Shown here: positions 6,822-58,596 of the stretch, piece by piece
How the letters are laid out: the number at the start of each line of letters is the position of its first letter
How positions within the stretch are numbered: position 1 is the stretch's first letter
From: an uncultured Alphaproteobacteria bacterium
GTDB taxonomy: Bacteria; Pseudomonadota; Alphaproteobacteria; RF32; CAG-239
DNA length: 64,000 nt
Reading direction: 5' to 3'
Assembly: GCA_910585375.1 (NCBI GenBank)
Contig: CAJUCZ010000002.1
Location: 43,285 to 107,284, forward strand
Translations under genes and position numbers: made by a program
The notes under the pieces: generated by a model
What the model was told of the DNA's origin: nothing
Seen by the model: only the letters and a program-made list of their open reading frames with translations
The model's database searches: none

Positions 6822-6850
6822 ACAAAAAAGCCTCTCTTAATGAGAGGCTT
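6822..6850. terminator. Bidirectional rho-independent terminator (aagcctctc-ttaat-gagaggctt)
   Basis: Perfect 9-bp stem flanked by A- and T-runs between convergent infB and the 6855..8045 ORF. Confidence 0.7.
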
Positions 6851-24451: not shown

Positions 24452-24589
24452 TTTCAAACAAATCTGACCGCGGGGCAATTTTTGCCCCGCATTTTTTGTA
24501 CCAGACTTCCATAGGAATAATCTTAAAAAAATGCTGTTTGTGAAGCAAAAACTGATGTACAAAAAATAAGAAGAAAAGAAACAAGCATG

Positions 24590-24950
24590 ACTGGTCTTAA
24601 AAAATTAAAACTTGATATATGAGGCAGATAATAAGAAAAGAAAATTTTGGCGACAGAAGTGTATAGAGACATACATGACTTACCAAAATTTCCTTTTCTG
24701 TATTAGGTGCCCATAGTTTTATAAAACCGCGGAGAATGAGTCGAATAATAAGATTTTAGGGTGGAGAAAGCGGAGTGTACAAAGTAGTACATGAGCATTT
24801 CTCCAACCCGCTAAATCTGTATTAGTCGGCCATTATGCGCGTTTTTTAAAACTTGATAAAGGCCGATGCTATTTGTGGAGCAAAATTCGACGTGTACAAA
24901 AAATAGTACACGAGAATTTTGAAACGCAAATTTGATCGGCCTTTTGCAAG
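24590..24950. repeat. Cluster A of nested palindromic repeat units (3 units)
   Basis: Units are bounded by (g)ataataaga ... ctgtattag, with a gYgtac-N6-9-gtacRYga core and self-complementary arms. Inter-unit motif tataaaaccgcggagaatgag; terminal ttatgcgcgtttttt. Confidence 0.7.
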
Positions 24951-24952
24951 TT

Positions 24953-25690
24953 TTATATCATGGCCATTCCGCCATTAATATTAATAGTCTGTCCCGTAAT
25001 ATATTGCGCTTCATCAGACGCAAGGAATGCAACAACGTTTGCAATATCCTGAGCTTCACCAAGCTTGCCTTCCGGAATTTTGGCCAAAAGAGCGGCTTTA
25101 ACATCATCTGGCAAAACATCTGTCATCGGCGTGCGGATAAAGCCCGGAGCAATTGAGTTTACGGTAATGCCGCGCGAACCGACTTCCTGAGCCAGACATT
25201 TGTTCATGGCAATCATACCGGCCTTGGAAGCGGAATAGTTGGCCTGACCGGCATTTCCGGTAACGCCGACAACCGAGGCAATACCGATAATACGACCGAA
25301 ACGGCGCTTCATCATGCCGCGAACGGCAGCTTTTGCCAATTTGAAACCGGCTGAAAGGTTAACATCCAAAACCAGTTGCCAGTCTTCATCACTCATTCTG
25401 ATAAAGAGATTGTCGCGTGTCAAACCGGCATTGTTTACCAAAATATCAATACGGCCAAGTTTTTCCTCAACTTTTTCAACCAAAGATTTTACATCTTCAG
25501 GATTTGTCAGGTTGGCGGTAAAAACCTCAACATTGGAACCCAACTCTTCCTTCAGCTTAAGCATCGGCTCTTCACGCATATCGGTCAAAGCCAGAGTTGC
25601 CCCCTGAGCATGCAGCGTACGGGCGATTTTATCACCCAGTCCGCCGGCGGCACCGGTAATCAGGGCAACTTTTCCATCTAATCTAAACAT
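24953..25690 (-). CDS. fabG: 3-oxoacyl-[ACP] reductase
   Basis: SDR with GxxxGxG; fabD-fabG order. Confidence 0.9.
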   Translation of the reverse strand: MFRLDGKVALITGAAGGLGDKIARTLHAQGATLALTDMREEPMLKLKEELGSNVEVFTANLTNPEDVKSLVEKVEEKLGRIDILVNNAGLTRDNLFIRMSDEDWQLVLDVNLSAGFKLAKAAVRGMMKRRFGRIIGIASVVGVTGNAGQANYSASKAGMIAMNKCLAQEVGSRGITVNSIAPGFIRTPMTDVLPDDVKAALLAKIPEGKLGEAQDIANVVAFLASDEAQYITGQTININGGMAMI

Positions 25691-29699: not shown

Positions 29700-29978
29700 G
29701 TGTCTCTGGAAAGTCTTGGCAAGCGCAGAAAGCGTAAGCAACCGCAGCAAGCCTGGATGCCTAAGTCAGATAATAAGAAAAAAGAATTTTAGCGACAGAA
29801 GTGTACGTAGTGGTACATGACTTAGCTAAAATTCTTTTTTCTGTATTAGGGTTTTATAAAAACGCGGAGAAAGAGGCTGGTAATAAGAAATAAAAAAGGA
29901 AGTACCGCAGCGTACATAGTAGTACGTGAGGAAACTTCCTTTTGCTATTTCTGTATTAATAGCCCTTTATACGCGTTT
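29700..29978. repeat. Cluster B of nested palindromic repeat units (2 units) plus the cttggcaagc...gcaaccgcagc sub-repeat
   Basis: Unit B1 has a perfect 18-bp stem agaaaaaagaattttagc/gctaaaattcttttttct around a gtgtacgtagtggtacatgac core. Unit B2 is flanked by the inverted tataaaaacgcgg / cgcgttttttata. Confidence 0.7.
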
Positions 29979-29979
29979 T

Positions 29980-32391
29980 TTATATTTTCATCTTGTAGAA
30001 GGACCGATATACAAATATCAACCCCAACAATAAGAAGAAAATACCCAGCCCCAGAGAAACACATCTCGGAGCGGCAACAGCCATTTCTACTGCCAGCAAT
30101 CCGAACAAAGTCGTAAACTTGATAATCGGATTGAGAGCAACGGAAGACGTATCTTTGAACGGATCACCGACCGTATCGCCGACAACAGTAGCGTCATGCA
30201 ACGGCGTACCTTTCTCATTCAAATCAACCTCAACCACTTTCTTGGCATTATCCCATGCGCCGCCGGCATTCGCCATAAACAGCGCTTGGAACAAACCAAA
30301 CACGGCAATTGAAATCAGATAGCTTGCAAACAGGTTTGCATCAAAGCAGGCAAACGCAATCGTAAAAGAAAAGATTACGATAAAGATGTTAAACATGCCC
30401 TTTTGCGCATAGATTGTGCAAATTTTTACAACTTTCTGAGAATCTTTCTTAGACGCAGCTTTTTTACCGTCAAGTTTGATGTGACTCTTAATAAAGTCAA
30501 CCGCTCGGTAAGCACCGGTCGAAACCGCCTGCATGGAAGCGCCCGAGAACCAGTAAATCACCGCACCGCCGAGAATCAGGCCGAACAGAACTTGCGGATC
30601 CAGCAGATTAAGCTTCAGGTTCAACAGCAAAATGATTGAGAAAATCATCGTTGTAGCTCCGATAACCGCCGTACCGATAAGAACCGGCTTGGCCGTTGCC
30701 TTAAAGGTGTTTCCGGCACTGTCATTAGCTTCCAGCAAATGCTTTCCTTGCTCAAAATTCGGTTTAAATCCGTATTTTTTCTCAATCTCTTTGTCCACGT
30801 TTTTAACGCTTTCAATCTGAGACAGCTCAAAAACGGACTGTGCATTGTCGGTAACCGGACCATAGCTGTCTACGGCAATAGTCACCGGCCCCATGCCAAG
30901 CATCCCGAATGCCACCAGACCGAAAGCAAAAACCGACGGATAAACCATAAAGTCGCCCAAACCGGACTGCGCGGTAAAGAAAGCGATAACCATCAAACCG
31001 ACCATGACCATTCCCTGCCAGAAAGCGGAAAAGTTACCGGCAACGATACCGGAAATAATGTTCAGAGAAGCACCGGCTTCACGGCTGGATTTGACGATTT
31101 CCTGAACATGCTGTGACTTGGACGATGTAAAGATTTTGGTAAACTCCGGAATCAGAGCCGCCGCCAAAGTACCGCAGCTGATAATCAGAGAAAGACGCCA
31201 CCACAAATCCGGACTGATATCGCCGATCATCACATAAGAAACACCAAAAGTGACGGCAATCGAAATGATTGAAGTAAACCAGATCAGGCTTGTCAGCGGT
31301 TTTTCAAAATCAAAGAATTCTTTTTTGCCGTAAAGGGCAGAAGAAACTTTATTGTTAAACCAGTAAGAAATCAGCGATGTAATAATCATCAGGATACGCA
31401 TTGCAAAAATCCAGACAATCAGACGAGCCTGAAAATCAATACCGTTCGGCATCAACGCCAAATCGCCGTTCGGGGCATACATCATGCCGGCACCGAGAAC
31501 GATAAAGCTGATAAGAGCCACGCCGGTCACGCCGTAAGTTTCAAAACCATCGGCAGTGGGTCCGACGGAGTCGCCGGCATTATCACCGGTACAGTCGGCA
31601 ATCACTCCCGGATTGCGAACGTCATCCTCACCGATTTTGAAAATAATCTTCATCAGGTCGGCCCCAATATCGGCAATCTTTGTAAAAATGCCGCCGCAAA
31701 TACGCAAAGCTGCCGCACCCAGAGATTCGCCGATGGCAAATCCGATAAAGCAGGCGCCGGCGCTTTCTTTCGGCACAAACAAAAGAATGGCAATCATCAT
31801 AATCAGCTCAACGCAAATCAGCAAAACGCCGATAGACATGCCGGAACGCAACGGCAGGCTCATAACCTTATAAGCCTTGGCTTCCAAAGAAGAAAAAGCC
31901 GTTCGGGCATTGGCATAGTTGTTAATGCGCATACCGAACCAAGCCACGGAATAAGAACCGAGAATTCCCAAAACTGACCAGGAAAGAATAGTCAGAACTT
32001 TGGGCATCGGCGTTGCGTTAAGATAATAGAAATAGTAGAAAATACAGACCGCAATAAACACTTCCAGAACCAACAGCAGTTTAGCCTGTTGTTTCATATA
32101 AGTTTTGCAGGTTGCATAAATCAGTTCCGAAACCTTCAGCATGGCATCATGAGCCGGCATTTTTTTGATCTTAAGAAACTCATACAAACCAAAAAGCATA
32201 CCCAAAACACAGATACTCATGCCATACAGCAAAATCTGCGAACCCAGAACAGAATAACCGAAGATGTTGTATTCCACATCCAAAGACGGAATTTTGAGGT
32301 CAATTTCAGAAGCATATGCCCCCTGAACAACCCCGACCAGCGCCAGCATCAGCGCACCGGCAAAGGTCTTAAAATTTTTCAAACCAAACAT
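29980..32391 (-). CDS. hppA: Membrane-bound proton-translocating pyrophosphatase
   Basis: 803 aa, multi-TM, with H+-PPase signatures GDTVGDPFKDT and DNAGG. Confidence 0.9.
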   Translation of the reverse strand: MFGLKNFKTFAGALMLALVGVVQGAYASEIDLKIPSLDVEYNIFGYSVLGSQILLYGMSICVLGMLFGLYEFLKIKKMPAHDAMLKVSELIYATCKTYMKQQAKLLLVLEVFIAVCIFYYFYYLNATPMPKVLTILSWSVLGILGSYSVAWFGMRINNYANARTAFSSLEAKAYKVMSLPLRSGMSIGVLLICVELIMMIAILLFVPKESAGACFIGFAIGESLGAAALRICGGIFTKIADIGADLMKIIFKIGEDDVRNPGVIADCTGDNAGDSVGPTADGFETYGVTGVALISFIVLGAGMMYAPNGDLALMPNGIDFQARLIVWIFAMRILMIITSLISYWFNNKVSSALYGKKEFFDFEKPLTSLIWFTSIISIAVTFGVSYVMIGDISPDLWWRLSLIISCGTLAAALIPEFTKIFTSSKSQHVQEIVKSSREAGASLNIISGIVAGNFSAFWQGMVMVGLMVIAFFTAQSGLGDFMVYPSVFAFGLVAFGMLGMGPVTIAVDSYGPVTDNAQSVFELSQIESVKNVDKEIEKKYGFKPNFEQGKHLLEANDSAGNTFKATAKPVLIGTAVIGATTMIFSIILLLNLKLNLLDPQVLFGLILGGAVIYWFSGASMQAVSTGAYRAVDFIKSHIKLDGKKAASKKDSQKVVKICTIYAQKGMFNIFIVIFSFTIAFACFDANLFASYLISIAVFGLFQALFMANAGGAWDNAKKVVEVDLNEKGTPLHDATVVGDTVGDPFKDTSSVALNPIIKFTTLFGLLAVEMAVAAPRCVSLGLGIFFLLLGLIFVYRSFYKMKI

Positions 32392-34935: not shown

Positions 34936-35115
34936 TTATTTGCAGTTACATTTGTCACTGCATTTATGCGTCTCGTTACATTGACAATCGTCTCCGCAGG
35001 TACAATGCTCATTGCATCCGCAATTCTCGCCGCATTGGTGCGTTTCGTCACATTTGCAGTTCTCTCCGCAGGTACAATTCGGATTCTTGCATTTAGGATT
35101 GTTGCAGTTTCTCAT
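34936..35115 (-). CDS. Metallothionein-like Cys-rich small protein (59 aa, 16 Cys), not in ORF track
   Basis: Translates to MRNCNNPKCKNPNCTCGENCKCDETHQCGENCGCNEHCTCGDDCQCNETHKCSDKCNCK; RBS aaggagaaagta before the ATG; 11 nt upstream of the CsoR-like gene on the same strand. Confidence 0.65.
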   Translation of the reverse strand: MRNCNNPKCKNPNCTCGENCKCDETHQCGENCGCNEHCTCGDDCQCNETHKCSDKCNCK

Positions 35116-35258: not shown

Positions 35259-35966
35259 ATGCATTTTTTAAGACCGGCGGCGGAACGCGGCCAGACCCGG
35301 ACCAAATGGCTGAACAGTTATCATACTTTTTCATTCGGCAACTATTATGACCCGCAATTTATGGGTTTCAGTGATCTCAGAGTCATTAATGACGACATTG
35401 TCGAACCAGCCCGCGGTTTTGACATGCACCCGCACAATAACATGGAAATCATCAGCATTGTTTTGAGCGGAGAACTGGAACATAAAGACAGTATGGGAAA
35501 CGGTTCCGTCATCCGTGCGGGCGAAATACAAAAAATGACGGCCGGCAGCGGCATCCTGCACAGCGAATTCAATCCCTCTGACAAAGAACAGGTACACTTT
35601 CTGCAAATTTGGATCATGCCGGATTTGAGAGACCTGCGCCCCGATTATCTGCAAAAGAAATTTTCGGAAAAAGAACTGAAAAACCGCCTGCACCTGATTG
35701 TCTCGCCTGACGGCGCCGACGATTCAATCCAAATTCATCAAAATGCCGAAATTTATCAAAGCCTGCTCGATGCCGGCCAAACGGTAAAATATAAAATTTC
35801 CGCAAATCGTGCCGTTTGGCTCCAAATCGCCGCAGGTTCCGTCACCTTGAATAATACGCCGCTGGTAGCCGGCGACGGTTATGCCCTATGGAACGAAGAT
35901 ACGGAAATAGAACTCCGCGGCATTGACAACCAAAGCAACATCTTGTTGTTCAACCTGAGCAAATAA
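35259..35966 (+). CDS. Pirin-family protein (cupin, quercetin 2,3-dioxygenase-like)
   Basis: FDMHPHNNMEIISIVLSGELEH metal-binding motif. Confidence 0.85.
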   Translation: MHFLRPAAERGQTRTKWLNSYHTFSFGNYYDPQFMGFSDLRVINDDIVEPARGFDMHPHNNMEIISIVLSGELEHKDSMGNGSVIRAGEIQKMTAGSGILHSEFNPSDKEQVHFLQIWIMPDLRDLRPDYLQKKFSEKELKNRLHLIVSPDGADDSIQIHQNAEIYQSLLDAGQTVKYKISANRAVWLQIAAGSVTLNNTPLVAGDGYALWNEDTEIELRGIDNQSNILLFNLSK

Positions 35967-40844: not shown

Positions 40845-41699
40845 ATGAAAAACTTTATTATTACTCAAAAAGACAGCCTTTATATTTTATGGCTGTGGGA
40901 CAGTATAAAAGAAGATTTTGAAAAACTGGCCGAAGGCCCTTGGGCACAATGCCGCGCCCTTTCAAAAGAAGCACTGATTGGAAATGCTGCCGACGACTTC
41001 CGTTTTTTCGGAATAAGCCGCGATAAGCTGTTCCAATCGCCGGAACATTGCTCGGAAGTTGACAACCGCAACGACTGTTTTCTCTATAAAAAAGAAAAAA
41101 ACTGGTACCTGCGCACAGACAAATTCTCTGACACCGACCGACTTCTGGGAACGGCAGATTACTATGACACTCCGTTTGGAAAAAGATTTTTTTATGTTCA
41201 ATTTCTTCCTAAAAAAGAATATATATTGAGCTTTGTCTGTAAAGGAACATCAGAAGTCTTTCAAAAAAAATACGACAAACCGTATTTTACCGGCAAAGAA
41301 TATGTTGTTGCCGACAGAAACGACGGATATTCCGATATCTACAGCTATGGACTTCCGTCAACAAAAGAACTGATAGAAATACCGTACTGCAACAAAACAA
41401 GAATTTACGGCTACGTAAAAAAAGCGGAGGCCTATAAGCTTTTGGCCGAAGAACAATATATAAGCACGTTCCAAAATGCCTATCTGGTCTTCAAGGAACA
41501 CCAAACAGCCGGATTGTTCGCCATAGATCAGGAAGAAACCAAACTGGTTGCCGAAGGAAAATACAAAACGCACCAATGGAAAAATATTTTTTATTTGAAT
41601 GGCAAAGGCTATCCGTATACTTACAACGTTGTTGAATGGGACAAGGTTTTCTTGACACCGGCCGGCAAAATCAAAAATTTCTTCAAAAAACTGTTCTAA
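40845..41699 (+). CDS. Hypothetical protein (284 aa)
   Basis: ORF with terminator; its last codons FKKLF-stop are duplicated at 42423-42443. Confidence 0.45.
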   Translation: MKNFIITQKDSLYILWLWDSIKEDFEKLAEGPWAQCRALSKEALIGNAADDFRFFGISRDKLFQSPEHCSEVDNRNDCFLYKKEKNWYLRTDKFSDTDRLLGTADYYDTPFGKRFFYVQFLPKKEYILSFVCKGTSEVFQKKYDKPYFTGKEYVVADRNDGYSDIYSYGLPSTKELIEIPYCNKTRIYGYVKKAEAYKLLAEEQYISTFQNAYLVFKEHQTAGLFAIDQEETKLVAEGKYKTHQWKNIFYLNGKGYPYTYNVVEWDKVFLTPAGKIKNFFKKLF

Positions 41700-41783
41700 A
41701 AAAGCAAAAAGCCGGAAAGCCAAAAGCTTCCGGCTCTTTTTGTTACAATTTTAAATAATCCTCAAAAGACACATATTCCCGAC
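41681..41783. repeat. Direct repeat copy 1 (~100 bp: gene-end + bidirectional terminator + remnant 3' end of a 42484..43206-like gene)
   Basis: Matches 42423-42524. The minus strand of copy 1 still reads REYVSFEDYLKL-stop. Confidence 0.65.
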
Positions 41784-41892: not shown

Positions 41893-42378
41893 ATGGCTTC
41901 TAAAAACAATCAACTTAACATATTCTTGTCCAATCTTGCTGTTATGAATATCAAAATTCACAATTTGCATTGGAACATTATCGGTGCCGAGTTCCCTGTT
42001 ATCCACAAAATGACCGAAAAACTTTATAAAATGATCCAACTGCAGTTTGACGAAGTTGCCGAAGCAATGAAAATGCAAAACGAAATGCCATTTGCTTCTA
42101 TGGCAGACTATCTGAAAAATGCTACCATCGACGAAATTGAAAGCAGAGATTTTAACGCTTATGAAGTTTTGGAAGAGCTTGATGCCGACTGCCAGACTAT
42201 TATGGATTTGGCCAAAGACATCCGTGACGAAGCTGACAAAAAGGACAACTTCCTTATCGCAAACCTTTTCGAAGATTATCTGGCTGTTTATGCCAAAAAA
42301 TCCTGGATGATTCGCACCATGCTCAAAGAAGATGCTATTCCGCTGGAAGAAGATGAAGAATCAGAAGACGACGAATAA
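41893..42378 (+). CDS. dps: DNA-binding ferritin-like protein Dps
   Basis: Dps/ferritin-like four-helix pattern NLHWNIIGAEFPVIHKMTEKLY; acidic C-terminal tail. Confidence 0.75.
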   Translation: MASKNNQLNIFLSNLAVMNIKIHNLHWNIIGAEFPVIHKMTEKLYKMIQLQFDEVAEAMKMQNEMPFASMADYLKNATIDEIESRDFNAYEVLEELDADCQTIMDLAKDIRDEADKKDNFLIANLFEDYLAVYAKKSWMIRTMLKEDAIPLEEDEESEDDE

Positions 42379-42422: not shown

Positions 42423-42524
42423 CTTCAAAAAACTGTTTTAAAAAGCAAAGAGCCGGAAAGTCAAAAGCTTCCGGCTCTCTCTGTTACAAACTCAAATAAT
42501 CCTCAAAAGACACATATTCCCGAC
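42423..42524. repeat. Direct repeat copy 2 (includes remnant PFKKLF-stop plus terminator plus the genuine 3' end of 42484..43206)
   Basis: About 90% identical to 41681-41783. Confidence 0.65.
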
Positions 42525-44412: not shown

Positions 44413-44440
44413 AGACAACACCCAACATAAATAAATGCCA

Positions 44441-44485
44441 CCTGCAAGAGGCGGCATTTATTTATGGCGTACCCGGACGGGGATA
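44441..44485. repeat. Copy of terminator hairpin + tRNA-Arg 3'-end fragment (aaataaatgccRcctgcaagaggcggcatttattta-tggcgtacccgg...)
   Basis: Near-identical to 44820-44878 at the genuine tRNA 3' end. Confidence 0.6.
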
Positions 44486-44676
44486 GGGACAAAAAACTGA
44501 CCAACGTCAGATTTTTGGCACGTATCCCTAGCTTTACTTGTTGAGCAAGGAAAGCGGCAGCAACCGCAGCGAAACTAAGAAAGCTTGGAGCCCTCCCCGT
44601 GAAAACAAGCTCCTGCGATGTTTGAACGGAAGGGTACATCACAAAAAATCCCCAGCAATGCAGGGGATTTTGAAGT

Positions 44677-44696
44677 GGCGTACCAGGAGGGATTAC
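44677..44696. repeat. Second displaced tRNA-Arg 3'-end fragment (tggcgtaccaggagggatt)
   Basis: 19 of 20 identical to the tRNA-Arg 3' end at 44856-44875. Confidence 0.55.
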
Positions 44697-44855
44697 TCTT
44701 CGCTTCGCTCCAAGTTGCACTGGCGCTCGTTCGCTTTGCTCACCGGCGTTCTCCCGCCCGCCTCTCTCTGGTAGTCAAACCCACTTACTCGTGGGTTCAA
44801 ATCCACCGCTCCACAACATAAATAAATGCCGCCTGCAAGAGGCGGCATTTATTTA

Positions 44856-44932
44856 TGGCGTACCCGGAGGGATTCGAACCCACGACCCTCGGCGTCGGAG
44901 GCCGATACTCTATCCAACTGAGCTACGGGTAC
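44856..44932 (-). tRNA. tRNA-Arg (anticodon CCG)
   Basis: Manual fold: acceptor GTACCCG/CGGGTAC, D-arm GCTC/GAGT, anticodon stem TCGGC/GCCGA with loop CTCCGAC, T-loop TTCGAAT, encoded CCA. One U-U mismatch in the T-stem. Confidence 0.8.
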
Positions 44933-47033: not shown

Positions 47034-47068
47034 CGGATATGTACCTGTGTAACCAAGGTACATATTTT
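47034..47068. terminator. Terminator atatgtacct-gtgtaacca-aggtacatat plus T7
   Basis: Perfect 10-bp stem followed by a T-run after dnaB. Confidence 0.7.
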
Positions 47069-47094
47069 TTTATTAACTTTAAATTAAATAAATA

Positions 47095-47123
47095 TTGACA
47101 TTTAATGAAAGGTGGGGTATAAT
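47095..47123 (+). promoter_or_regulatory. Perfect consensus sigma70 promoter TTGACA-17 nt-TATAAT upstream of pilin paralog 1
   Basis: TTGACA at 47095-47100, 17-nt spacer, TATAAT at 47118-47123, AAGGAG RBS at 47137-47142. Confidence 0.7.
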
Positions 47124-47146
47124 TTATGTCATAAACAAGGAGAAAA

Positions 47147-47530
47147 ATGATGAACTTCCTCAGAAAAAACATTTGGACAATCTGCCTGATTCTGGCCTTT
47201 GTCCTCATTTCAGGATCAGCTATGGCGGCAACGGGCAGTCAAAGCAGCCTTATGGGTATTGCTAAACAAAAAGCCTTCACTACTTTCAACAATGTCAAAA
47301 ACATCATCTTTATCGTTGGCGGTTTCGGTCTGGTTTTGCTGGCCTTCAACGCCATCTTCGGCAAACTCAAATGGACGGCTTTTGCCTCGCTGGCCGTTGG
47401 TTTGGCAATTTTAGCCGCCGCCGGTGCTATCGTCCGTTACGCAACCGGTGATACAAACTTAAATGCCACAGGTCAGGGAGCTGACAGTTTTGGCGATACT
47501 TTCCAGCAATCTGCCGCAGACACTTACTAA
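47147..47530 (+). CDS. TrbC/VirB2-like type IV secretion pilin paralog 1
   Basis: Cleavable signal peptide (AMA), two hydrophobic segments separated by GK(L)KW, and a C-terminal IVRY. First 31 codons are identical to paralog 2. Confidence 0.6.
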   Translation: MMNFLRKNIWTICLILAFVLISGSAMAATGSQSSLMGIAKQKAFTTFNNVKNIIFIVGGFGLVLLAFNAIFGKLKWTAFASLAVGLAILAAAGAIVRYATGDTNLNATGQGADSFGDTFQQSAADTY

Positions 47531-47555
47531 AAGCATAAGGCGTTGCCTGAACAAC

Positions 47556-47644
47556 GCCTTATTCCTCGGAGAGAAACCCTTGCAAGTAAACCCAATTTAC
47601 GAGATTAATTTTCTCACCGGATTTCTCTCCGCCTCTTTTTATTA
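47556..47644 (+). other. Conserved 3' structured element copy 1 (10-bp stem cggagagaaa...tttctctccg enclosing ~45 nt), candidate ncRNA/3'UTR element
   Basis: About 97% identical to 51047-51135; follows a terminator hairpin aaggcgttg-cctgaa-caacgcctt. Confidence 0.45.
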
Positions 47645-50512: not shown

Positions 50513-50594
50513 AATCCGCACCGGAAATTATAATTTCTAAAAAGAGTCTGAATTTTTCAGGCTCTTTTTTTATTAACTTTAAATTAAATAAATA

Positions 50595-50623
50595 TTGATA
50601 TTTATTGAAAGGTGGGATATAAT
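50595..50623 (+). promoter_or_regulatory. Near-consensus sigma70 promoter TTGATA-17 nt-TATAAT upstream of pilin paralog 2
   Basis: Duplicate of the 47095-47123 module with 3 substitutions. Confidence 0.65.
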
Positions 50624-50646
50624 TTATGTCATAAACAAGGAGAAAA

Positions 50647-51024
50647 ATGATGAACTTCCTCAGAAAAAACATTTGGACAATCTGCCTGATTCTGGCCTTT
50701 GTCCTCATTTCAGGATCAGCTATGGCTACCAATACCGGCGGCGGGCAAAACAGTTTGATGGATATTGCCAAAACCAAAGCCGGTACAACTTTTCAGAACG
50801 TAAAAAGCATTGTGTTTATCGTCGGGGGTTTTGGCTTGGTCTTGCTGGCCTTCGGTGCCATCTTCGGCAAAATCAAATGGTCGGCTTTTGCCTCGCTGGC
50901 CGTTGGTTTGGCGATTTTGGCTGCGGCCGGTTCTATCGTCAAATACGCAACCGGCGACAGTAAAGTAAGCGGACAAGAGAGCACTTATTTTGTAGATACA
51001 TTCCAAAATTCCGCAACAGACTAA
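50647..51024 (+). CDS. TrbC/VirB2-like type IV secretion pilin paralog 2
   Basis: Same architecture as paralog 1: identical signal peptide and a diverged mature region. Confidence 0.6.
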   Translation: MMNFLRKNIWTICLILAFVLISGSAMATNTGGGQNSLMDIAKTKAGTTFQNVKSIVFIVGGFGLVLLAFGAIFGKIKWSAFASLAVGLAILAAAGSIVKYATGDSKVSGQESTYFVDTFQNSATD

Positions 51025-51046
51025 AACAAAGGCGTTGCCTGAACAA

Positions 51047-51135
51047 CGCCTTACTCCTTGGAGAGAAACCCTTGCAAGTAAACCCAATTTACGAGATTAA
51101 TTTTCTCACCGGATTTCTCTCCGCCTCTTTTTATC
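51047..51135 (+). other. Conserved 3' structured element copy 2
   Basis: See 47556-47644. Confidence 0.45.
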
Positions 51136-58007: not shown

Positions 58008-58127
58008 CTTCGTCCTTTTTATAAAAAAAACTTACTTATAGCAAATTTAACCGCATTTCCAATGCAAGTCCATAATTTTTTACGCAAAAGCCCACAAATA
58101 AGAAAAACGTTTACAATGACAGATGTT

Positions 58128-58596
58128 TTTTCAGGCCGCTGTAAAAACCGCGATAGAAGCGCTAAGCAAAAACAATCGCAGCTCCGGTTGTTTTTGTCTG
58201 CAAACTCTTTGGAACATCTTGGCAAGCAAGGAAAGCGTTAGCAACCGCAGCGAGCTTAGATGCCTAAGGTACAAAATAGTACATGAGCATTTCTCCATCC
58301 CGCTAAATCTGTATTAGTCGGCTATTATATGCGGTGTTTACAAAAATTACGGAGAATGAGGCTAGTAATAAGAAAAAACCTTTAAGGCGACAGGAGTGTA
58401 CGTGGTGGTACATGACTTAGCCTTAAAAATTTTCCATATTAAGCGCCCCTTCAGGCCGCTGTAAAAAACGCGATAGACGCGACGGATAATAAGAAAAAGA
58501 AAATCCGGCGACAGGCGCGTACATAAACGTACGTAACTTAGCCGGATTTTCTTTTTCTGTATTAGGCGTCCGTATTGCGCGTTTTTTACGCGACAA
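58128..58596. repeat. Cluster C of nested palindromic repeat units (3 units) inserted between leuS stop and lptE start
   Basis: Unit C3 has a perfect 17-bp stem agaaaaagaaaatccgg/ccggattttctttttct around a gcgtacataaacgtacgta core. Also holds duplicated ttcaggccgctgtaaaaaRcgcgataga modules and the cttggcaagc...gcaaccgcagc sub-repeat. Confidence 0.7.

Follow-up and report, generated by a model that had tools for sequence, protein, structure and literature searches.

What are the palindromic repeats of roughly 80 nt that recur behind genes in the chromosome of an uncultured Alphaproteobacteria bacterium, and what placed them there? The question arises from a 64,000-nt stretch of contig CAJUCZ010000002.1 (GenBank assembly GCA_910585375.1), called the window below, a chromosomal segment of 44.9% G+C whose genes include fabG/fabD, ftsK, an H+-pyrophosphatase (H+-PPase) gene, dnaB, and leuS-lptE. 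A preliminary description of the window counted at least eight units, which is fair: a covariance model made from 131 distinct copies maps six full ~80-nt units in three clusters (24625-24709, 24742-24828, 29767-29852, 29877-29962, 58362-58445, and 58483-58568), all on the + strand in the orientation of that description, and there are besides one 5′-truncated copy (58268-58319, found with nhmmer) and one divergent copy (24860-24942, 18 bits). These repeats are best explained as a family of non-autonomous palindromic elements specific to a lineage of gut and rumen Alphaproteobacteria. The family is genuinely interspersed, consists of nested palindromic units as first described, and is an undescribed relative of the REP (repetitive extragenic palindromic), ERIC, and MITE (miniature inverted-repeat transposable element) types of repeat.

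The unit is the inner part of a larger element. Its conserved ends, TAATAAGA and CTGTATTA, had been correctly recognized; beyond them three flanking pairs covary, followed on each side by an outer arm of ~20 nt. The outer arms covary in turn (AATG/CATT is swapped for TGTG/CACA, for example, and one pair is TA in 47 copies, CG in 46, and GC in 13) and end in an A-run and a T-run. Because the hairpin continues past the unit into these covarying arms, the complete element is a palindrome of ~125 to 130 nt, TAAAAA…TTTTTA. In mRNA sense, its 5′ side consists of TAAAAA, a variable stem of 4 to 5 nt, TATAATGG (or CTCTGTGG, TTCTATGG, or others), a 3-nt stem, CTAATACAG, and two variable stems; the apex is TCA-YGTAC-N6-GTACR-CTCC; and the 3′ side holds the complements of the variable stems, TCTTATTA, a 3-nt stem, CTCATTCTC (or CTCACATATC), a stem, and TTTTTA. 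Elements occur singly or in head-to-tail arrays, at whose junctions TTTTTA runs directly into TAAAAA, with TA at both element ends, and their units are 25 to 42% G+C. The "second module" earlier placed between units is this junction, at which the T-run arm of an element meets the A-run arm of the element that follows; it and its "inverse" are not separate modules but outer arms, each unit having its own outer stem. The GTAC-N6-GTAC part of the proposed core stands, whereas the adjoining "gacttag" is limited to one subtype (A1, B1, C2, and C3 in the window). The two subtypes of unit read …GCGACAGGAG-YGTAC…GTACR-TGACTTAGC… and …GCGGAG-YGTAC…GTACR-TGAGC….

The whole element folds as one long imperfect hairpin with fixed bulges and internal loops. 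Full elements have predicted energies of −37 to −57 kcal/mol (z of −5 to −10) on either strand, and RNAalifold places 30 pairs in one hairpin across the 131 copies, 17 of them with double changes. That arms differ in sequence and remain complementary holds far above chance, with 96.3% of cells paired compared with 75% in shuffles and 35 to 50% with slid partners, and with 875 double-change cells compared with 267 in shuffles. Several features are invariant: TAATA/TATTA at the base with a one-base bulge, a basal A·G mismatch, an asymmetric internal loop, the apical stem YGTAC-N6-GTACR (whose Y-R pair covaries 65:64), and a G·U (121 of 131 copies) beside tandem G·A/A·G. Fixed bulges and mismatches are kept in every subfamily, which fits a structure that must be recognized.

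An exact-pattern scan of one genome per species, whose figures derive from listed matches and are lower bounds, found the pattern at no fewer than 118 loci (at least 61 assemblies); the 131 distinct copies behind the covariance model come from these matches. All but two titles are uncultured gut or rumen Alphaproteobacteria, the exceptions among the listed loci being a chance match in an archaeal metagenome-assembled genome (MAG) and a 2.4-kb contig binned as Firmicutes. The same exact pattern occurs in at least 120 metagenome contigs, largely from human gut, and 120 metagenome loci served as a replicate set; no close relative of the window is among them, and a few of their contigs belong to the same assemblies as MAGs, so the replicate is largely, not wholly, independent. 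Sister subfamilies with other basal motifs (TAGTAGGCG…ACGCACTA; GATTAGTGCG…ACGCCTACTA) or other cores (CCTAC…GTAGG, TTTAC…GTAAA) are interleaved in the same arrays (locus L027, 5385-5840; L087, 2100-2900 and 5600-6100; L046, 1092-1547), and true copy number therefore exceeds what the covariance model detects. The initial inability to assign the units to a described family is borne out by every collection searched. Rfam at its gathering threshold scored only a tRNA in the window and at permissive thresholds only hairpin noise (E ≥ 0.2); the exact-pattern scan of viral contigs (IMG/VR) returned 0 matches, on which ground we reject a phage origin; and blastn (word size 11) with cluster A found no match in 5,426 Escherichia coli genomes (20,395 E. 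coli records), which carry REP, BIME, and ERIC. No similarity to plasmids was found either, and homology to plasmids or E. coli repeats, including the 127-bp ERIC/IRU consensus, is likewise rejected. A literature search found no description of the hairpin family.

Arm covariation had been taken to imply selection for the hairpin, a conclusion that it does not carry by itself. In RNA under selection for pairing, G·U should be far better tolerated than A·C. At the 29 non-fixed consensus pairs, 3603 cells (95%) are Watson-Crick, 23 (0.6%) are G·U, 28 (0.7%) are A·C, and 114 are other combinations, and the outer arms hold 87 G·U and 138 A·C on the mRNA-sense strand. Since G·U is no commoner than A·C, the complementarity looks DNA-templated rather than RNA-selected, as though the arms were copied or corrected as DNA. 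Perfect master copies might be propagated, quasipalindromes might undergo template switching within a strand, or a hairpin might serve as the intermediate. Folding energy is not usable for choosing an RNA strand, and neither is wobble: the strand first described is more stable in 107 of 131 copies and the other strand in 23, an effect traced to the one conserved G·U, which becomes C·A on the mRNA-sense strand in 121 of 131 copies. The asymmetry is absent from the variable stems, and the outer arms lean only weakly toward the strand first described. A cruder arm-against-arm alignment gave a contradictory count because of the conserved internal loops and was discarded.

These statistics bear on the idea that the units are independent small RNA genes or a structured noncoding RNA family, each unit being transcribed from a TATAAT in its outer arm. 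In the commonest subfamily a perfect TATAAT does precede CTAATACAG by 7 nt, the element is followed by a T-run, and the opposite strand has tandem G·A/A·G pairs and the conserved G·U flanking the apical stem. Other subfamilies, however, have CTCTGTGG, TTCTATGG, or CAATACGG in place of TATAATGG, and the box covaries with its pairing partner; we reject a promoter of the element's own because it is not general across subfamilies. The absence of a conserved −35 element, of an Rfam match, and of G·U enrichment, together with high copy number and a position fixed at stop codons, makes the idea scarcely credible, and nothing in the evidence supports the free-standing structured small RNA that had been entertained at first.

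Across the window and the MAG loci, nhmmer found 206 units in 143 clusters, none of which mixes orientations (0 of 143; 0 of 139 in the replicate). With flanking genes taken from a simple open reading frame (ORF) call and the orientation of the preliminary description set as +, the strands of the flanking genes were (−,−) for 67 clusters, (+,−) for 35, (−,+) for 6, and (+,+) for 2. Co-directional contexts thus split 67 to 2 (74 to 0 in the replicate), and the upstream gene is in sense for 102 of 110 clusters (replicate, 114 of 116), or in 61 of 68 cases when distinct upstream gene families are counted. Because an element lies downstream of an opposite-strand gene, what the mRNA of that gene contains is CTAATACAG…TCTTATTA, the reverse complement of the strand first described, and this is the reading that matters biologically. 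The clusters had rightly been placed at gene 3′ ends, but on a strand antisense to the mRNAs of fabG, H+-PPase, and leuS, which are minus-strand genes.

The elements do not merely follow these genes; in most cases they are fused to the stop codons. The median distance from stop codon to inner unit is 19 nt, which is the length of the outer arm, and it is 15 to 26 nt in 61 of 102 clusters; the stop lies inside the element in another 17 (in the TAA of TATAATGG or of CTAATACAG), and 8 further clusters abut a variant element missed by detection. Stop fusion is found in 100 of 114 clusters of the replicate. Typically the stop is the TAA that opens the palindrome, as in gcg TAA AAAACGCG … CGCGTTTTTTA, and abutting stops are TAA in 81% of cases, compared with 67% among all called genes, and TGA in 4%, compared with 15%. 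All three window arrays start in this way, the first TAA of elements A3, B2, and C3 being the stop codon of fabG (24953-24955), of the H+-PPase gene (29980-29982; gene identity from Pfam), and of leuS (58586-58588), respectively. Overlap with a called ORF exceeds 30 nt in only 7 of the 143 clusters.

Orientation is also tied to replication. Of 25 pairs of neighboring clusters within a locus, 24 have the same orientation, and the mRNA-sense strand shows positive GC skew in all 118 loci (mean, +0.128) and in 116 of 120 replicate loci. Of the coding bases, 68% are co-oriented with the mRNA-sense strand. The skew inside oppositely oriented genes is still +0.057 (75% of such genes are positive), and after correction for orientation it remains positive at 74 of 76 loci (P about 8e-20; replicate, 71 of 74). 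Since it persists in opposite-strand genes and after correction, gene orientation does not account for the skew. The leading, G-rich strand is everywhere the mRNA-sense strand of the element, and lagging-strand genes carry none; this leading-strand sequence is the one carried by the lagging-strand template. As a separate observation, the skew of the window's + strand is unusually strong (−0.118; the mean across carrier loci is 0.12 to 0.13), and skew can be separated into a replication component of about 0.11 and a transcription component of about 0.06.

Complete replication polarity would suit a host function exercised at the DNA level, in replication or chromosome structure, with the elements serving as priming or restart signals (as hairpins on the lagging-strand template), polarity signals, or nucleoid-protein sites. 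BIMEs bind gyrase and IHF, and here the 16-bp dyad YGTAC-N6-GTACR with its fixed asymmetric bulges resembles a protein-recognition site, in keeping also with Watson-Crick-only complementarity. Such a function leaves stop-codon fusion, presence and absence at orthologous sites, and tandem clustering unexplained, and no candidate protein was identified; we consider it highly improbable.

We favor, with moderate confidence, a new MITE/REP-like element that inserts strand-specifically in the style of single-stranded DNA elements and is co-transcribed as a 3′-untranslated-region (3′-UTR) hairpin with a U-run. In a first step, the element would spread, or would once have spread, as a folded single strand that inserts strand-specifically into the template of the lagging strand, following the logic of IS200/IS605-type and REP-type elements, with the enzyme encoded elsewhere. 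Insertion of this kind would explain the replication lock, the head-to-tail arrays, the conserved extrahelical bases, and the Watson-Crick-only complementarity. In a second step, the element would be transcribed as the 3′ UTR of the upstream gene, where hairpin and U-run could act as a factor-independent terminator and/or hold off 3′ exonucleases; only the outer stem would be opened by a ribosome that halts at the TAA. The elements have the layout of intrinsic terminators (a stable stem and a U-run downstream of a sense gene), with stems far longer than usual, and a T-run of at least 4 follows 114 of 152 elements (75%). Judged from position and T-run, a terminator or 3′-protector role is plausible, and the elements probably serve as transcript-end hairpins. 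A TA or TAA target is too short to explain the stop-codon specificity, and selection therefore probably contributes as well: the survivors would be those copies that end a co-oriented gene harmlessly or, as a hairpin with a U-run, usefully.

The element could instead be a classical MITE of the double-strand, cut-and-paste kind that targets TA (IS630/Tc1-like), selection having removed every copy in the wrong place or orientation. IS630/Tc1-like targeting of TA has been proposed for RUP and Correia elements. MITEs are defined as noncoding, A+T-rich sequences of less than 200 bp with terminal inverted repeats (TIRs), TA termini, and a target-site duplication (PMC2229807). The hairpin elements largely agree with this definition, being under 200 bp, noncoding, A+T-rich, and bounded by TIRs (ends such as TAAAAAACGCG…CGCGTTTTTTA) with TA at both ends; the array junction amounts to TA plus TA, and TGA stops are depleted. 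The outermost bases of the supposed TIR, 4 to 5 nt after the A-run, are nevertheless the most variable and covary, the opposite of a TIR bound by a transposase. A symmetric TIR element should moreover insert both ways, leaving selection alone to produce a polarity of 118 in 118, and no related insertion sequence (IS) with ends matching the element (TAAAAAnnnnTATAATGG) was seen in the DNA examined. We regard cut-and-paste transposition as quite unlikely.

Orthologous gene ends reveal how the arrays change. At the 3′ end of infB the window has an ordinary terminator (6825-6850) and no element, and eight other species have arrays. At the orthologous H+-PPase and leuS-lptE sites, relatives at 80 to 90% identity have one to four elements of different subtypes, some of these arrays carrying hybrid outer arms, and one genome has a two-unit block of ~270 nt duplicated at two loci, with identity beginning at the A-run. 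Arrays are thus shown to change by duplication and by recombination between conserved modules. Among strains of the window species, found through exact LptE identity, the leuS-lptE array is identical bar two substitutions (in the C3 apical loop and the C2 stem), and change is therefore slow. The presence/absence polymorphism that had been proposed as a check is found between species, as at infB, but not, at leuS-lptE, among strains of the window species. Separately, several independent assemblies that share the window's exact LptE (contigs L242-L246) break ~200 nt upstream of lptE, inside the array; contigs that end inside arrays indicate that the family fragments short-read metagenome assemblies.

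Slow change among strains would also be expected of a host cis-element, that is, a standardized intrinsic terminator or 3′ stabilizer that is vertically inherited, homogenized by gene conversion, and not mobile. Its attractions are the exact placement at stop codons, the hairpin with its T-run, the covariation of the stems beside that T-run, the recurrence of elements at the same gene ends across many species (infB in 8), and the stability of arrays among strains. It leaves unexplained the absence from lagging-strand genes (skew is reversed in 0 of 118 and 4 of 120 loci) and is at odds with the lack of a G·U excess over A·C, with presence/absence and unit turnover between species, and with identical multi-unit blocks at unrelated loci. 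Window genes, moreover, also use ordinary short terminators: besides that of infB, the + strand gene convergent on locus A retains its own at 24470-24490. We judge a purely host-encoded, nonmobile cis-element unlikely.

A partner enzyme would be expected of REP/REPIN elements, which are mobilized by a REP-associated tyrosine transposase (RAYT). We searched ~1.8 Mb of flanking DNA by tBLASTn with Y1-transposase queries, namely, IS200 TnpA and an E. coli RAYT sequence. One RAYT-like fragment was found in a carrier MAG (locus L034, 7764-8000; NCBIfam REP_Tyr_transpos, E of 1.2e-9). The gene (L034, 7764-8000; L119, 1660-2190) appears frameshifted, overlaps or abuts nth, has only two database relatives, and holds two inverted copies of its own GTAGGGACGCCCC…GGGTGTCC palindrome (GTAGG) in coding sequence. 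With no hairpin unit beside it and unrelated GTAGG palindromes of its own, we reject it as the partner enzyme, and the metagenome loci (0.9 Mb) gave no further RAYT/TnpA match. The family does share with REPs its hairpin repeats in extragenic 3′ regions, mosaic clusters with BIME-like linker motifs, and exploitation by another small insertion element (L, described below), as REPs are targets of some ISs (PMC1525189). It lacks the GTAG or CGTC tag by which REPs, as imperfect palindromes of 20 to 40 nt, are defined (PMC3733652), is 125 nt long, and forms no inverted doublets, there being no mixed-orientation cluster in either set. RAYT-mobilized REPs are, on this showing, a very unlikely identity for the elements.

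Several observations weigh against single-strand insertion followed by service as a transcript-end hairpin. On the side of mobility, there is no clean pair of empty and filled sites between close relatives, and no empty site near enough in relationship to reveal a target duplication was found; the sole recurrent "target" is TA or TAA, 5′ of the element; the Y1-transposase queries, other transposase families not having been searched, found no mobilizing enzyme in the ~1.8 Mb of flanking DNA; and the replication strand is deduced from GC skew and gene-strand bias, with no mapped origin. On the side of function, the wobble statistics give no sign of purifying selection at the RNA level, the mRNA-sense strand forms the slightly weaker hairpin, and a 50-bp stem, in which the U-run is able to pair with an A-run, is an atypical shape for a terminator. 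Strong termination between leuS and lptE might also do harm.

A bolder form of the single-strand reading is possible, though we offer it only tentatively. The elements may constitute a previously unrecognized class of single-strand-mobilized hairpins that specifically captures leading-strand stop codons, each element furnishing the stop codon as well as the transcript end, with a structure-specific enzyme unrelated to the known RAYT/TnpA partners; or they may reflect a host domestication that couples translation stop, transcription termination, and co-directional replication. In either version, L would be specialized on the GTAC core.

L is a second element in this system, of ~107 nt, starting CTTAGGCATC… and ending in a canonical terminator-like hairpin, AAAAACAACCGG…GATTGTTTTTGCTTAGC (GGTTGTTTTTGCTTAGC; …GCTTAGC). 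A search for orphan half-elements flanking an ORF, as signs of an autonomous parent, found none and revealed L insertions instead. In locus L002, three units are intact but for an L inserted precisely behind the second GTAC of the core (L copies at 1989-2094, 2224-2330, and 2459-2565); L likewise interrupts unit C1 of the window (L copy at 58161-58268) and elsewhere follows the unit end (29703-29765), its polarity always being that of the units. Outside its terminal hairpin L is not strongly folded (z of +0.9), and its layout of 5′ stem, open stretch, and terminator hairpin resembles that of a small RNA gene. L is a separate small insertion element with the core of the hairpin unit as its target.

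The window illustrates most of these forms, all of them on the − strand. At locus A, the divergent member A3 (24848-24955; 18 bits in the covariance model) folds as a single hairpin of −44.1 kcal/mol (z of −10.3) and shares the GTGTAC…GTACAC core and the TAAAACTTG…CAAGTTTT ends without the CTAATACAG/TCTTATTA motifs. The complete element A2 (24722-24848; 98 bits; single hairpin, −41.5 kcal/mol, z of −6.6) runs from TAAAAAACGCG through an outer arm, the inner unit 24742-24828, and the second outer arm to CGCGGTTTTA. Element A1, also complete (24607-24721; inner unit, 24625-24709; 64.6 bits; −36.7 kcal/mol, z of −8.0), has its core mutated to GTAT…ATAC. At locus B, the complete element B2 (29857-29982; inner unit, 29877-29962; 87.8 bits) folds at −52 kcal/mol in mRNA sense and −53.8 kcal/mol on the other strand (z about −9.6). 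It is followed by inner unit B1 (29767-29852; 68 bits), whose distal outer arm is replaced by the 5′ part of an L element (29703-29765, by BLAST of the L consensus) joined directly to the unit end, …TCTTATTATCTGA passing into CTTAGGCATC…; a unit orthologous to B1 was found in loci L078 and L051.

At locus C, the complete element C3 (58462-58588; 78.8 bits; −57.1 kcal/mol, z of −9.3) has a perfect 11-nt terminal inverted repeat, TAAAAAACGCG/CGCGTTTTTTA, and C2 (58341-58461; inner unit, 58362-58445; 52 bits; −38.7 kcal/mol, z of −5.0) has a degenerate proximal end, with TTAATATGG where CTAATACAG is expected. Only the proximal half of C1 remains (58269-58340; partial nhmmer match), cut by a complete ~107-nt L element (58161-58268) at a junction in which GTAC is joined to CTTAGGCATC; the equivalent unit in locus L082 is uninterrupted. 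Distal to L, 58100-58160 holds leftovers, recognized by comparison with loci L082 and L088 (which have an intact unit or the same leftovers there): a piece resembling an outer arm (GCTTCTATCGCGGTTTTTACAGCGGCC) and the final bases of an earlier unit (…TTTTTCTTATT). The supposed partial unit at 44539-44590 turned out to be a fragment of L (44537-44577, matching L positions 11-49 by BLAST) with no hairpin unit.

That fragment lies in an unusual setting, between two copies, 391 nt apart and 97% identical, of the 3′ end of tRNA-Arg(CCG) with its downstream terminator hairpin (44423-44480 and 44814-44871), and a third tRNA-like 3′ end (44675-44691) lies between them as well. The duplicated ends look like the scar of a small element integrated at a tRNA gene. 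Other repeats in the window are apart from the family. Three adjacent blocks of 162, 229, and 106 nt (98%, 79%, and 98% identity) recur ~3.5 kb apart, at 47065-47642 and 50565-51134, a pattern suggestive of two paralogous gene starts or of a segment duplicated recently. A 98-nt direct repeat (87% identity; 41686-41783 and 42427-42524) that contains a terminator-like hairpin, AAAGCCGGAAAG…CTTCCGGCTCTTT, flanks an ORF of 161 amino acids at 41893-42378, and two tandem 72-nt copies (72% identity; 34940-35083) lie upstream of the ORF at 35259, in DNA with no other annotation.

REP, ERIC, Correia, and other small palindromic repeats are decades-old discoveries, and how they move and whether they serve their hosts are largely unsettled. 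The unusually clean rules of the present family (fusion of ~95% to the stop of a co-oriented gene, a single replication polarity in ~100%, head-to-tail order, Watson-Crick-only pairing, and fixed bulges) make mechanism testable. Such regularity speaks for insertion of a single strand coupled to replication and hints that the stop of translation and the end of the transcript are linked. In practice, the elements can serve as markers of gene ends and of the replication strand in this uncultured gut lineage, and they should be masked or modeled when carrier MAGs are annotated.

Among known systems, ERIC/IRU (127 bp) and the Correia/NEMIS elements of Neisseria are alike in size (~100 to 160 bp), A+T-richness, almost complete palindromy, and TA termini, and they too are intergenic DNA beside gene ends that is transcribed along with its neighbors into long RNA hairpins. 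How ERIC affects the upstream mRNA depends on its orientation, and remodeling of the hairpin by a ribosome close to the stop codon has been proposed (PMC2229807). ERIC has no sequence similarity to the present elements in the E. coli genomes searched, and neither ERIC nor Correia keeps to one orientation or to a set distance from genes, whereas the present elements follow the orientation of the gene (~95%) and of the replication strand (~100%), start on the stop codon, and have terminal stems that vary and covary around invariant internal motifs. REP, BIME, and REPIN sequences resemble the family as extragenic 3′-end hairpin repeats in mosaic clusters with linker motifs that are targets for other insertion elements; they are thought to act on transcript ends, and their single-strand hairpin recognition logic would fit the fixed bulges seen here. 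Unlike the short, tagged REPs, which typically form inverted pairs, these elements are strictly head to tail, with no GTAG/CGTC tag in the 131-copy consensus and no cognate RAYT found.

IS200/IS605 elements share an orientation tied to the lagging-strand template, hairpins whose extrahelical bases serve recognition, and insertion beside a short sequence without obvious duplication (PMC5027513). They differ in having distinct left and right subterminal hairpins and a 4- to 5-nt target, compared with one long palindrome and only TA/TAA at the left end here, and the Y1-transposase queries found no TnpA in the DNA examined. Integron attC sites, such as the ~125-nt Vibrio cholerae repeats, are imperfect palindromes of similar length with conserved structure, variable sequence, and extrahelical bases, in arrays of one orientation polarized relative to replication; the present elements lack RYYYAAC/GTTRRRY core sites (their ends are TAAAAA/TTTTTA), have no cassettes between copies (0-nt spacing), and are dispersed at stop codons behind housekeeping genes rather than gathered in one integrase-linked array. 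Rickettsia palindromic elements (RPE) are likewise alphaproteobacterial palindromic repeats of ~100 to 150 bp; set apart here by description, they lie in frame inside protein-coding genes, whereas the present elements lie outside coding sequence except for the stop codon. What distinguishes this family from all of these is a combination: fusion to stop codons, near-absolute polarity with respect to both gene and replication, and variable terminal stems around invariant inner motifs.

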